Position numbers and translations under genes: made by a program. The notes below the pieces were generated by a model, which was not told where the DNA came from, searched no databases, and saw nothing but the letters and a program-made list of their open reading frames with translations. A DNA stretch of 64,000 bases, taken from positions 5,447 to 69,446 of the forward strand of contig CAZLGM010000001.1 in assembly GCA_964558875.1 (NCBI GenBank), given 5' to 3'. Shown piece after piece: positions 10,268-47,196 of this stretch. The DNA comes from an uncultured Desulfocapsaceae bacterium. GTDB taxonomy: Bacteria; Desulfobacterota; Desulfobulbia; Desulfobulbales; Desulfocapsaceae. The number at the start of each line of letters is the position of its first letter. Position 1 is the first letter of the stretch.

Positions 10268-12347
10268 CTACCGGACAAGTTGCAAAATGGTACGGGCCAG
10301 GTTGGCAATAACGGAAGAGTAATGTCGGATACGCACAATACCGGTTCGACCCGGGGTGAGCTGTTGCGGATCTTCGGGTGTGATAAAGAGTTCGTAGTAG
10401 GGGTTTATTATCCTGTAATATCCCTTCTCCTGGATAGCTGTCACCGGACCGCCAAATGGGGAGAGAATTGAGGCAGGTGGGGAGAGGATAACCGGTGCCG
10501 GATTGATCGATGAGATAACCCCCTCAACCGGTTTAACCCTGTCTGGCAGATAGATTTTGACCGTCTTTCCCGGAGTAACCTTCTCCAACTCATATTCAGG
10601 CAGACAGCCGATGACTGTAACATCACCGGGTCTGTATACCTCTCCCAGGGGTTCGCCTTTTATGAGCCAACGTCCCGGTATAAGGTTGTCTTCATGGTAC
10701 CACCAGAGCGTTCCTTCAATAGGCGAAGTTGCATTTAACAGGTTGATTTTCCGATCAATTTCAGCCAGCAGGTTGTCAAGGGCCTGTTTATGCTGCTCTT
10801 TGATTCTACTCTGTCCTAATGTTTTTACCGCACTGCTGAGCTGATCCTGCTCCATGTCTACTAAAGTCGCGGACAACAGCGTCTGTCTCCGATTCATTTC
10901 CATCTGCGGATTTGACAAAGAGTAGAGCGGATCGTTTTTTCGTATTCGGCTGTTACTTTTTGCCTGGAGCTTTTCTAAATATCCTTCCTGGGTCACGTAT
11001 AAGATCTGAGCCTCGTTGGCCCGGATAGTGCAGCCGATGTCCATACTCCACGGCAGCGGAAGAGCAAGAAGGCCCAAAACAAGCAAAACACCCAGGATGG
11101 TGATTGAGGCCCGACCGGCCTGGAAATTGGAGCGTTGGGCCGCGACAATCTTCATTTCAGCAAAAAGCGGCATAAGAATAAGGAGATACACCTCAAGGCC
11201 GATAAGAATAAGAGCCACGCTTTTTGCAAATGTATAATAGATAATTAACAGGATAGAGGTGTAGAGAAATATCCGATAACAAAAAGCACAAATCCCATAG
11301 GTGATTAGAAAAGTGTGAGTGGAACGTTTCAATTGCTGTCGATTTACAGAAGGTGACAGGCCGAAAAAGGTCTTTCTCATGAACTCTTTTACGGCGACGG
11401 TTGAGCGACTGTACAGGTTATCAATTCCAGTACCGTCCATAAGGAGATAGTAGCCGTCAAAACGAAGCAGCGGATTACCGTTTATTTAAAAGGGTATTGA
11501 TGGAGGTGACGGCAAAGAGATAGTAACAGATCGAGTTGAGCGTCCCGGCTCCTGTTGATGCCCAGATCAGGGCGGCAATACCGCCGATAAGTATTTCAAT
11601 TCCCATTCCGGCTCCGTCTATCATCATCCGGGTCTTACGGTCCTTGATCTGCCATGAGTCGGTAATATCGGTATAGAGGCGAGGCATAAAGACCATAATG
11701 GCCAGTCCGATGTTTCTGACCCTGATGCCGGCGGATTTAGCCGCATAGGCATGCCCCAATTCATGGACAGCTTTGATGATGATCAGCGTCAGTCCGTAGC
11801 GCAGCAGTCCTGATCCGGTTAAGGTGGACATAAACATGGCTGTTACATGATGCCAGCGGCTGATGAGCAGGATGTAGCCGATAATGGACAGCAGACCGAG
11901 GAGTTTGAGAATCCGGCTGTTTAAGATGATTTTAATATACGGCCAGCTCCAGCTCAGAAAACGATCCGGAGTGAGCAGGGGATATTTGAAGAACAGCCAG
12001 GCGCTGAGAAGCTGCTTTTTTTTCATCTTGCTGACAGCCTTTGAAGCATTGATGATGCGTTTCTCGGTCAATCCGTACACAGGCTGCAAGAGGCCGTTTG
12101 TCGACAGAAAAGAAAGGATGGCAAGTATCTCGGACTCATCTAATTCAAGACCGCCAAGTCGGAGTTGTTCTTGAAGCCTGGTAAGGGGGATATTGGTGTG
12201 CAGACGGCTGACGACCTGATATTCCTGCCGGCCAAGGCGGAAATAACGGTCGGCCACAGGGTCAAACAGAGTCCAGCTCCCCTCCTTTTCCGAGGGAAAA
12301 AGTTTGAGGTCCCGGCGAAGGACACCTGTGTTCTGCTGGGTAGTCAT
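10268..12347 (-). pseudogene. site-2 (M50) metalloprotease fused to a HlyD-like adaptor domain, split by a 1-nt frameshift near 11478-11486 (pseudogene or sequencing error)
   Basis: ORF 11475-12347 carries HELGHAYAAK (HExxH) in a polytopic membrane region and ends ...SINTLLNKR*. In another frame the sequence continues INGNPLLRFDGYYLLMDGTGIDNL, which is the S2P NxxPxxxxDG motif, and runs into ORF 10268-11440. That ORF has TM helices, a coiled coil and a HlyD-type beta-barrel. Confidence 0.75.
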
Positions 12348-12419
12348 GGACTGACAGATGATTTTGAAAGAAATTGAAAACCAATATCGAAATATGCAAC
12401 AAACCGGAGCTTGTGGGTG

Positions 12420-12500
12420 TTCGATAGTGCTGCAGCTTTGTACGATTTATACGTCAGATAATAGTAAAGGCTATATCTGACGTATAAATCATGCATAGAT
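12420..12500. repeat. structured intergenic repeat (long hairpin), related to the core of the element at 47380-47470
   Basis: It shares the TTCGATAGTGCyGyAGCTTTG lead with the 47.4-kb copy. It has a 17-bp perfect stem, GATTTATACGTCAGATA (12444-12460) paired with TATCTGACGTATAAATC (12474-12490). The other copy keeps a stem built from different bases. Confidence 0.55.
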
Positions 12501-45508: not shown

Positions 45509-45720
45509 ACTGCAACCTCCTGTAATTGTCAGGATACGTGGTGAAAAGAAATTTGTTTCAACCTAATGGAGTTCCAGATTGAAGTCAACTTTTATAGGGG
45601 ATGTGCTTGTCTTTACGGTTGCTTTTTCACCGGCAAGCACAATAACCATATCGTGGTCATAATGCCTGGATGGGAACATGTCGGTTTAGCTCCTTGTTAA
45701 ACTGAAACAAAGTACCATCA

Positions 45721-47196
45721 CTATGAGTTGTCTTTCAGTTGGGATTTGGCGATGTTCAGGTTGCTGGCTGCCTGCTCATAGTCTGGCCGGATTTTCAAAG
45801 CCTGTTCATAATGGGAAACGGCCTCACCAATGTTGCCTTTTTTAAAATAAACAAAGCCCAGACTGTTATGGGCCTCGGCATAACCGGATTCGGCTTCGAT
45901 CACCTTTTTAAGCTCTTCAATAGCCGCGTCAAACTGCTTGATGTCCCCCAGGGCGACACCGAGGTTAAATCGGGCAGGAAGAAAATCCGGCTGAATGTCC
46001 AAACATTTCCGGTAGCAGTTTATGGCTTCATTGGTGTTTTTTTCATTATAAAAATCATTGCCTTTGGTCAGCCAGGGTTGGGCCAGTTCCAGGTCGTCAG
46101 TGTGATGGACAACATCCCGCATCGCCTCATCAGGAAGAGTATAGGATGAACGGATCAGATTATCATTCCAGTCGAGAATAGCAGGAAAACGGATACCAGC
46201 AAGGATGTTGACGGCAAAGATCTCTTCGACACCCGTTTCAAAACGCAGAAAAGCGACGATCTCACCGCTGGTGATATCAACGACATATACGCCGCAGGTT
46301 CTCTCAGGTATTTCTTTGGTAAGTGGAATGCCTGAAAAGACAGCTGTTTCCCGAACTTTTGAGAGACCAATGAATGCGAGATTGCCAAGGAAATCAAGAC
46401 CCCGGGTAAAACCGGGCAGGGTGGCAACGGTAATGGACTCTTTTTTATCGGGATCATAAACGTTCAAACCACCGGTACCTGACTCCAGAAACCAGAGACG
46501 GTCCTGATACCAGCGGGGAGAATGGGGCATGGAAAGTCCATCCAGAATGATTTCGTTGGAATCGATATCCATCAGGATCCCACCATCCGCCTTCTTCTGC
46601 CGCCAGCCGGAAGCCACGTCGGTGGTACCAAGAGCAGTTACATACCTGGGCTTCCCATCCCGCAGACCAAGGCCGTTGAGATGACAGCGGTCGCGCATAT
46701 CATAGCCGGTGATAAAGGGAGGCCGCCAGCGGGGAACAAAGCTGTTCTGACCGTCCATGGTACAGAGGCAGGAAAACCGGGTATTGATAAACCACAATTC
46801 ATCATCAGCCCAGGTCATTTCATGAATATCAATATCGCCGGTGACATGAATCTTGTAGGGCAGAAAGCAGCCGTCATGGGGTACGGTGGACTCGATTTTT
46901 GATCCCACCTCGGGAGTGTTGCGCAGAATCCAGATGGCCGATTCGGCTCCAACAGCGATCTTACTGTTGTCAGCGGCAACACCCATTGGCTTGCGAAAAT
47001 TAATGAAGTGGCTGTTGACACTCTCTTGTTCATTACGGACAATGACCAGTTTGCCGGCCTGATAGGTCGAGACCAGAAAACACGATTGGGACTGTTCCAG
47101 AATCTGCTTGAGGCTGTCGGTATGGACAATCTTCAGTTCTTCGGATGCTTGGCCTGCCGGTGCCGGTTGTGAGCCATTGTTGTTTGTTTGTGCCAT
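45721..47196 (-). CDS. TIGR03032/DUF4915-like beta-propeller protein fused to C-terminal TPR repeats
   Basis: STYQAGKLVIV, TGDIDIHEM, INTRFSCLC, DRCHLNGLG and GLSMPHSPRWYQDRLWFLESGTGGL match my recollection of the TIGR03032 family. The C-terminus has three TPR-like units (AINCYRKCLDIQPDF..., AEAHNSLGFVYFKKGNIGEAVSHYEQALKIRPDY). Confidence 0.7.
   Translation of the reverse strand: MAQTNNNGSQPAPAGQASEELKIVHTDSLKQILEQSQSCFLVSTYQAGKLVIVRNEQESVNSHFINFRKPMGVAADNSKIAVGAESAIWILRNTPEVGSKIESTVPHDGCFLPYKIHVTGDIDIHEMTWADDELWFINTRFSCLCTMDGQNSFVPRWRPPFITGYDMRDRCHLNGLGLRDGKPRYVTALGTTDVASGWRQKKADGGILMDIDSNEIILDGLSMPHSPRWYQDRLWFLESGTGGLNVYDPDKKESITVATLPGFTRGLDFLGNLAFIGLSKVRETAVFSGIPLTKEIPERTCGVYVVDITSGEIVAFLRFETGVEEIFAVNILAGIRFPAILDWNDNLIRSSYTLPDEAMRDVVHHTDDLELAQPWLTKGNDFYNEKNTNEAINCYRKCLDIQPDFLPARFNLGVALGDIKQFDAAIEELKKVIEAESGYAEAHNSLGFVYFKKGNIGEAVSHYEQALKIRPDYEQAASNLNIAKSQLKDNS

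Follow-up and report, generated by a model that had tools for sequence, protein, structure and literature searches.

The question raised by this locus is how two giant beta-helix proteins might cross the Gram-negative envelope when the genes beside them encode a TolC-family channel and HlyD-type adaptors and no recognisable pump. The genes lie at positions 10268-47196 of a 64-kb stretch of DNA (the whole of the sequence analysed, hereafter the window) from an uncultured Desulfocapsaceae bacterium (contig CAZLGM010000001.1), and were checked by a listing of open reading frames (ORFs) together with Pfam/NCBIfam profile searches. The giants are encoded on the minus strand at 31525-43320 (giant A; 3931 codons, with matches to DUF4347 and Beta_helix) and 15634-31392 (giant B; 5252 codons, with matches to DUF4347, Beta_helix, choice-of-anchor Q and CSLREA). 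The locus is a damaged copy of a conserved five-part cassette, consisting of one or more giants, a TolC protein, a soluble adaptor, an adaptor carrying a GAF-like domain (GAF-adaptor), and a fusion of three parts (RRE-M50-adaptor) in which a recognition element for ribosomally synthesised and post-translationally modified peptides (a RiPP recognition element, RRE) precedes an M50 metalloprotease and a further adaptor. The giants probably leave the cell by a leader-guided, protease-coupled, TolC-dependent route that dispenses with an ATP-binding cassette (ABC) pump.

The linkage of these parts is seen most readily from the fusion gene (10268-12347, minus strand; Peptidase_M50 followed by a HlyD adaptor in profile matches, 692 aa once a frameshift is repaired). 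Full-length homologues of the repaired M50-adaptor, at ~700 aa, number more than 1100, and the source databases name them only as 'HlyD family efflux transporter periplasmic adaptor subunit' or 'putative peptide zinc metalloprotease'. A profile of the family matched 6439 clusters (50% identity) at E ≤ 1e-30 among 1.84 billion cluster representatives, the best 150 matches all running end to end over ~700 aa, and a scan with this profile of one genome per species gave 80 loci from at least six phyla (Alpha-, Beta- and Gammaproteobacteria, Campylobacterota, Desulfobacterota, Lentisphaerota, Planctomycetota, Nitrospirota and Chlamydiota). ORFs were called in these loci and searched with the window proteins; among the 60 loci with at least 4.5 kb of upstream sequence, a homologue of the 460-aa GAF-adaptor (adaptor 2) is present in 49, a homologue of the 287-aa adaptor (adaptor 1) in 40, TolC in 39, and an ORF of at least 1000 aa in 45, within ~12 kb; counting either a giant or an ORF bearing the leader motif described below, the figure is 49 of 60. 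The common order is giant, TolC, adaptor (~260 aa), adaptor (~450 aa), M50-adaptor, and in some loci (L005, L043 and L044) the giant lies inside the operon, as it does in the window. Clustering of all remaining neighbours of the related loci gave no other conserved partner. The cassette is also carried by plasmids: by IncFIA/FIB plasmids of E. coli, where it is flanked by insertion sequences (24 of 5426 complete genomes), by p2 of Azospirillum brasilense Sp7, by a conjugative plasmid of Burkholderia anthina, in which the giant, TolC and adaptor genes overlap stop to start, and by the 35.8-kb plasmid pMSR-1; none of these plasmid cassettes has a linked ABC gene.

A short N-terminal motif accompanies this module on the giants. 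Both window giants begin MAIYALEDRILFDAAG and carry the leader ALEDRILFDAAG, and a motif scan placed the sequence LEDRILFDAAG at 43267-43299 in giant A and at 31345-31377 in giant B (both minus strand). The motif, of the general form LExR(I/L/V)(L/M/V)(F/L)D(G/A)(A/S), occurs within 3-45 residues of the start in every module-linked giant with a visible N-terminus, is found also in the giants of E. coli, Azospirillum, B. anthina and Methylosinus, and corresponds to the NCBIfam 'LEPR-XLL domain' (NF012209), whose cut-off of 17 bits the giant of L009 just passes with 17.1; a search of open-access full texts found no functional literature on LEPR-XLL. When the first 45 residues were scanned with the pattern [LMVH]ExR[ILMVFY][LMVFA][FLY][DES][GA][AGS], it was recovered in 20 module-linked giants and both window giants, with three further occurrences in 405,000 aa of other ORFs. 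The leader is followed by DUF4347 in 17 giants with a visible N-terminus, and in both window giants this domain spans residues ~151-305 (42412-42870 in giant A, 154 bits, and 30475-30942 in giant B, 158 bits; minus strand, Pfam PF14252, cut-off 24.6). DUF4347 was considered as a predictor of the module and rejected: DUF4347 giants lacking the leader, encoded on pPGA1_262 of Phaeobacter and on a Dolichospermum plasmid, have no module nearby, and it is therefore the leader, not DUF4347, that tracks the module.

In their bodies the giants differ from place to place, with beta-helix, choice-of-anchor Q and CSLREA repeats in the window, and adhesin-like Big_9, cadherin-like, Ig, He_PIG or CshA repeats in module-linked giants elsewhere; the Ig-like giant of E. 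coli carriers of the IncF cassette (for example MS 115-1, NZ_CP146666.1) has 4459 aa. The giants of the cassette have no Sec signal; GGxGxD occurs 0-4 times in module-linked giants, which have no RTX repeats and a Cys content of 0-0.2%. In the alignment of DUF4347, the Cys of 'YGC' is invariant and the His of 'SHG' nearly so, in proteins that are otherwise almost free of Cys, an arrangement reminiscent of the His/Cys dyad in autoprocessing proteases of clan CD (caspase/CPD-like). Apart from spurious matches to de novo TIM barrels, a DUF4347 profile search of the PDB returned only 9qpe_G ('DUF4347 domain-containing protein').

A candidate reader for the leader is present at the cytoplasmic N-terminus of the fusion (~12078-12347, minus strand). 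Modelled alone with AlphaFold2 (AF2), the first ~90 residues gave a predicted local distance difference test score (pLDDT) of 88 and a b3-a3 topology, and the best Foldseek matches (TigE, PqqD, TfuB1, TbiB1, TruD, CteB and McbB; probability 1.0, template modelling score 0.62-0.72 on target) are almost only RREs, among which the lasso B1 structures TfuB1 and TbiB1 have a leader bound. At the sequence level support is weak, PqqD matching 3 of 24 members and passing the Pfam cut-off in one sister-clade protein, and the Prokaryotic Genome Annotation Pipeline (PGAP) calls sister proteins 'PqqD family'. The domain folds like an RRE (PqqD) in the model and is predicted to bind a leader.

The protease core that follows has an intact zinc site once the frameshift is repaired, comprising HELGH (HExxH; 11751-11765, minus strand) and NGNPLLRFDG (NPxxxxDG), and the catalytic residues H195, E196, H199, N289, P292, D297 and G298 are invariant across 72 homologues. 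The N-terminal fragment encoded in the window scores 29.2 bits against the Pfam Peptidase_M50 cut-off of 27.2. The closest NCBIfam model is that of the daptide RiPP leader protease (NF041824; 1e-26, 93.9 bits against a cut-off of 300), and YydH-LiaK (NF058609) gives 22.7 bits against 225; judged by these profiles, the M50-adaptor is a relative of the daptide and YydH-LiaK families and not a member of them. In an AF2 model of an intact homologue with 84% identity (pLDDT 88.7), the C-terminal third, corresponding to ~10268-11050 (minus strand) of the window, forms a periplasmic adaptor with an alpha-hairpin that Foldseek matches to MacA, MexA, AcrA and EmrA.

The remaining adaptors and the channel lie on the same strand. 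Adaptor 1 (13942-14805, minus strand; 287 aa), a periplasmic protein of the RND_mfp type (TIGR01730; 155 bits, cut-off 94.9), carries the Sec signal peptide LFFFFLAPEAHS/AE. Adaptor 2 (12535-13917, minus strand; 460 aa, Pfam HlyD_3) has a cytoplasmic GAF-like domain (~190 aa) joined by a single transmembrane helix (192-221) to a periplasmic HlyD domain; of 19 members of this family, 4 are matched by Pfam GAF (E-value 2.6e-5 at best), and the adaptor of the sister clade scores above the GAF cut-off. The window thus holds three HlyD-type adaptor domains, which score only 15-19 bits with the type_I_hlyD model (TIGR01843; cut-off 208.65). The TolC-family channel (43853-45508, minus strand; Pfam OEP, 112 bits against a cut-off of 22) falls below the cut-offs of the subfamily models TIGR01844 and TIGR01845, and a lipobox (ISSC), found together with an acidic C-terminal tail, marks it as a lipoprotein. 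Regulators of the cyclic-nucleotide type are encoded near some cassettes, namely an FHA-GAF-HD_5 protein (HD-GYP-like) in L008 (893-2518), an HD_5-hemerythrin protein in L016 (13138-14568) and a diguanylate cyclase on the E. coli plasmid L087 (8006-9388), and together with the GAF-like domain of adaptor 2 these hint at second-messenger control.

Profile searches of the 64-kb window found no ABC, resistance-nodulation-division (RND), major facilitator superfamily (MFS) or SecA-like gene. The initial annotation of this DNA had likewise seen no ABC transporter, RND pump or RTX nonapeptides, had taken the M50-adaptor to be the only polytopic inner-membrane component, and was right on each count; GGxGxD is absent from giant A and appears a single time in giant B. 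Signature and homology searches of the 83 related loci recovered an exporter-type ABC within 10 kb in a single case, and neither of the two cassette-bearing plasmids searched whole, that of E. coli (69 kb) and pMSR-1 (35.8 kb), encodes one.

A clue to the energy source comes from a sister clade on alphaproteobacterial plasmids and chromids, in which the cassette comprises a giant of 8000-12,700 aa, DUF3467, a GAF-adaptor, a PqqD/RRE-M50 protein and a truncated SecA paralogue of ~650 aa (a Pseudosulfitobacter plasmid, L097, 4657-11030; a plasmid of Methylosinus sp. C49, L098, 1-15150; an Alisedimentitalea plasmid, L099, 1-12991). In the Methylosinus cassette an adaptor and TolC follow, and the giant carries LEPRVLLNAD. 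A SecA-like gene lies within ~3 kb of every distant RRE-M50 match on plasmids, mislabelled by PGAP as 'prepilin peptidase', 'DEAD/DEAH box helicase' or 'translocase', and its presence supports the view that these cassettes are protein-translocation machines. No SecA-like gene was found in the window or in the 83 related loci. Because the cassette of the sister clade includes its own SecA-like ATPase, the housekeeping SecA would, by analogy, be the likeliest motor here and the most economical candidate for the window clade.

In the mechanism that we favour, the RRE domain would capture the N-terminal leader of the giant in the cytoplasm, and the M50 core would engage or cleave this leader at the inner membrane. 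The three adaptors would then bridge to TolC, with the giant leaving through the resulting tripartite duct, driven presumably by the housekeeping SecA, or alternatively by the proton-motive force or by extracellular folding. The initial annotation had offered a protease-coupled, non-canonical export or anchoring route as one of two readings; synteny, leader and RRE fold all argue for it, while export and cleavage are steps that we infer, and an ABC transporter with its membrane fusion protein (MFP) in one related locus (see below) speaks for caution.

A search of the open-access full-text literature found no paper that describes this cassette. TolC with adaptors is an exporter of a known kind; what is new is the inner-membrane component. 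The closest analogy would be to the peptidase-containing bacteriocin exporters and to EpeP, an M50 protease thought both to cleave and to export its peptide (PMC10885120). Peptidase-containing ABC exporters (CvaAB-TolC, NHLP bacteriocin) resemble the route proposed for the cassette in using an adaptor and TolC and in having a protease of the exporter recognise and remove an N-terminal leader; the cassette protease is, however, M50 and not C39, there are no ABC domains, and the putative substrates are of 1000-12,000 aa and not peptides. The NHLM_micro_HlyD and bacteriocin_acc models score far below their cut-offs. Compared with the RiPP-associated M50 proteases (EpeP/YydH, the daptide HExxH protease, TglG) and the PqqD-fold leader-binding domains, the cassette protein has an RRE-fold N-terminus and a core nearest to those of the daptide and YydH proteins, but it lies below the family cut-offs, is fused to an adaptor and linked to TolC, has no modification enzymes beside it and presumably acts on giants. 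With the site-2 proteases (RseP, SpoIVFB) it has in common an invariant zinc site (HExxH, NPxxxxDG) set within a polytopic membrane core, but it lacks PDZ and CBS domains and any link to an anti-sigma factor, carries RRE and adaptor fusions, and scores 15.8 bits with the RseP model (cut-off 147.6).

Among exporters, the tripartite efflux pumps (MacAB-TolC, EmrAB-TolC, RND) are similar in their TolC, in an adaptor that passes RND_mfp and in adaptor folds like those of MacA, MexA, AcrA and EmrA, but the cassette has no ABC, MFS or RND pump, and none is conserved in the related loci. The type I secretion systems (T1SSs) of giant adhesins (LapA/LapBCE, SiiE/SiiCDF, MpIBP) likewise place TolC and HlyD-family adaptors beside giant, repetitive, Cys-poor substrates without a Sec signal, and one-step export through a tripartite duct is presumed in both. 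In contrast to these, the cassette has neither an ABC nor RTX nonapeptides, the conserved candidate signal of its giants (LEPR) is N-terminal and not C-terminal, and it has three adaptor paralogues, of which one is fused to RRE-M50 and one to a GAF-like domain. Of the parts that make up a T1SS, the HlyD-type adaptor and TolC are present, and a linked dedicated ABC and RTX repeats in the giants are missing; for a C-terminal signal there are candidates only, the lineage-specific domain of the window giants and a short motif of other giants (both described below). A dedicated SecA paralogue in the locus, as in accessory Sec systems, is absent from the window clade and present only in the sister clade.

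The copy in the window carries three lesions. Four large ORFs make up the two giant genes, each interrupted by a single in-frame stop, a TAG at 35131-35133 in giant A and a TAA at 27445-27447 in giant B. Since paralogous repeats have Gln at both sites ('GLxLQNG', 'NIVGQDP'), each stop is a C-to-T change in CAG or CAA. In the third gene, the M50 and HlyD ORFs lie in different frames owing to an extra A at ~11481-11483, and deletion of this base restores INTLLNNGNPLLRFDGYY and the S2P signature NGNPLLRFDGYY, giving the 692-aa protein, which aligns end to end with an intact relative (P0001) at 84% identity; an intact 692-aa allele (P0145) is present in another sample. Assembly error was rejected as the cause, and the lesions are taken as real, because separate JGI, ENA, NCBI and Logan assemblies record identical truncated products (for example, giant A as 2729 aa in a JGI assembly and giant B as 1315 aa in an ENA assembly). 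Reassignment of stop codons was likewise rejected, as ordinary window genes end in each of TAA, TAG and TGA. A frameshifted M50-adaptor together with nonsense codons in both giants indicates an inactive or decaying copy; the other genes of the window appear intact, and three lesions in one locus point to selective decay of the system in the population. All ten genes named in the initial annotation are present where it placed them, in the order and of the families it gave, and the lesions in the giants and the M50-adaptor had escaped it.

Several observations weigh against export by the ABC-free route. The window copy is broken, and so permits no inference on activity in this genome; the cassette of the window clade encodes no ATPase of its own; 11 of the 60 loci show neither a giant nor a LEPR-bearing ORF, within 10-kb flanks that leave the region upstream of most giants outside the view; and the window giants, though fitting the motif of 20 module-linked giants, have no NF012209 match at E ≤ 0.01. 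More directly, L005 (Lentisphaerae bacterium SIG82) encodes at 2-2982 an ABC_membrane+ABC_tran protein and a HlyD-type MFP directly upstream of TolC, followed by a DUF4347 giant, two adaptors and the M50-adaptor in the same gene order as in the window. This may be a hybrid or an ancestral arrangement; the absence of an ABC noted in the initial annotation holds for the window and for 82 of the 83 related loci, and breaks down here, where a canonical ABC and MFP stand beside TolC. An unlinked ABC partner encoded elsewhere is possible. Finally, 23 of 41 module-linked giants, where 0.05 would be expected, have a motif [LF][ST]xQ[LF] at 23-45 residues before the C-terminus, which could be the true export signal, or else a second signal or an anchor.

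L005 and this C-terminal motif are what a canonical T1SS would draw upon, with its ABC encoded elsewhere and its signal at the C-terminus, the RRE-M50-adaptor and its partners then being accessory, for example in N-terminal processing, quality control or a Lap-like retention and release at the TolC pore. T1SS substrates are giant, Cys-poor and without a Sec signal, all of which is true of the cassette giants, and the GAF, HD-GYP-like and diguanylate cyclase genes near some cassettes recall the c-di-GMP control of LapA. We nonetheless regard this as unlikely: an exporter-type ABC is seen in only 1 of 83 loci and in neither the window nor the two whole plasmids, the giants have no RTX repeats, a TolC and three adaptors of its own would be odd for a mere accessory, and where the sister clade does supply an ATPase it is SecA-like and not an ABC. 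Still less probable is a module that exports or matures a small RiPP-like leader peptide, or acts as an efflux pump, with the giants adjacent through shared regulation or island structure. Such RRE domains and M50 proteases are indeed known from RiPP pathways (EpeP/YydH, the daptide protease, TglG), and adaptor 1 passes the RND_mfp model; clustering of neighbours, however, revealed no conserved small ORF or modification enzyme beside the module, the only conserved leader-like motif of these neighbourhoods is on the giants themselves, and a giant of at least 1000 aa lies within ~12 kb in 45 of 60 loci, with giant and TolC genes overlapping in operons. That the giants with TolC, on the one hand, and the HlyD/M50 operon, on the other, are chance neighbours has next to no probability. 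In the window the two halves are parted by an 828-nt gap with a convergent small gene, and the initial annotation had kept unrelated neighbouring modules as its second reading; this is refuted by the linkage of the full set across phyla and on mobile plasmids, with the giants at differing operon positions (L005, L043, L044), and sequence identities of 25-40% speak against recent horizontal copies of a single island.

Beyond the leader-guided, ABC-free route itself, the cassette might define a distinct secretion class, a reading that we offer tentatively and with some doubt. In such a class a LEPR leader would be read by the RRE and processed by the M50-adaptor, and export would be ABC-free and driven by SecA, one clade using a paralogue of its own and the other the housekeeping SecA; the class would be widespread among Gram-negative phyla, and mobile on E. 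coli plasmids. Giant surface proteins are usually, by default, assigned to type I secretion. If the proposal is true, that default is challenged, in that a large set of giants, spread over thousands of protein clusters in many phyla, may use an inner-membrane machine borrowed from peptide natural-product biosynthesis, a new route across the Gram-negative envelope that is mechanistically distinct from type I secretion. It would also give functions to the LEPR-XLL motif, to M50-'HlyD' fusions annotated as efflux adaptors and to part of the DUF4347 proteins, and supply a tag by which substrates could be predicted among the giants from sequence. The location on E. coli IncF plasmids makes the hypothesis open to standard genetics.

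Other genes of the locus are lineage-specific and lie outside the conserved system, as does the shared C-terminal domain of the window giants. Upstream of TolC, at 45721-47196 (minus strand), is a DUF4915/TIGR03032 protein with C-terminal TPR repeats (DUF4915, 421 bits; TIGR03032, 405 bits against a cut-off of 251.5), predicted by sequence to be cytoplasmic. TIGR03032 was rejected as a component, with one weak match among the 83 related loci and a place beside TolC only in near-identical assemblies, and the protein is a lineage-specific accessory. A Bactofilin and AAA_22 fusion (ExeA/XrtA-associated-ATPase-like; Pfam and NCBIfam) at 8829-10235 (plus strand), convergent with the M50 gene, adjoins that gene only in the close relatives L001-L003, and the convergent 162-aa ORF at 15124-15612 (plus strand), which matches no Pfam/NCBIfam family, has a homologue only in the close relative L001. 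The component list in the initial annotation stands for TolC, the adaptors, the M50-adaptor and the giants, and loses TIGR03032 and the bactofilin-AAA gene. Its proposed comparison across genomes had a similar outcome: the M50-HlyD fusion, the paired adaptors and TolC do co-occur with giants, and DUF4347 by itself, the C-terminal domain and TIGR03032 do not mark the association.

The convergent small ORF lies in the 828-nt gap between giant B and the adaptor operon, which because of that gap and the convergent gene needs a promoter of its own; a promoter and terminator scan of the gap gave results at chance level, and the intergenic regions of the locus hold no convincing minus-strand sigma-54 sites. 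The remaining window genes encode two-component and sigma-54 regulators, CoA ligases, Mfd and similar proteins. A histidine kinase gene (47663-49180) diverges from the TIGR03032 gene, and beyond it a sigma-54 activator is encoded (49895-51235). The kinase gene is preceded at a distance of ~20 nt by a sigma-54-like -24/-12 element, TGGTATAGAAATTGC (47628-47642, plus strand), not distinguishable statistically from chance.

Some features of the giants and their counterparts are minor. On pMSR-1, a conjugative plasmid of M. gryphiswaldense (L102), the substrate position is taken by a 492-aa ELWxxDGT-repeat protein (18473-19951) without a LEPR leader, probably the remnant of a truncated giant. The C-terminal motif of module-linked giants has the fuller form (K/R)xx(L/F)(S/T)xQ(L/F/I/V)xxA, with an expectation of ~0.05 per 70 aa; its carriers include L009, L014, L020, L022, L025, L033, L039, L040, L044, L048, L054, L064, L070, L073, L075, L076, L079, L082 and L084 (E. 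coli), and the window giants are without it. These end instead in a shared domain of ~141 aa (15637-16059 in giant B and 31528-31950 in giant A, minus strand), their last ~230 residues, which include this domain, being 67% identical (157 of 235 aligned positions). Its only homologue among 5.8 billion proteins is a stand-alone protein of 189 aa; the domain was accordingly rejected as a family marker and is lineage-specific. In the 84%-identical relative (L001, 5763-6407) and in one other assembly (protein P0149) the domain forms a separate ORF of ~190-270 aa that overlaps the giant's end by 4 nt; the gene is either split naturally or broken by a further frameshift. Within giant B, two near-identical units of ~348 aa (IDVSLENLTLQNGYSTGHGGA...GPLADNGGPTWTHAL), ~1044 nt apart at ~20400-22500 and visible also as doubled pattern matches at 20406 and 21450, indicate a recent internal duplication.

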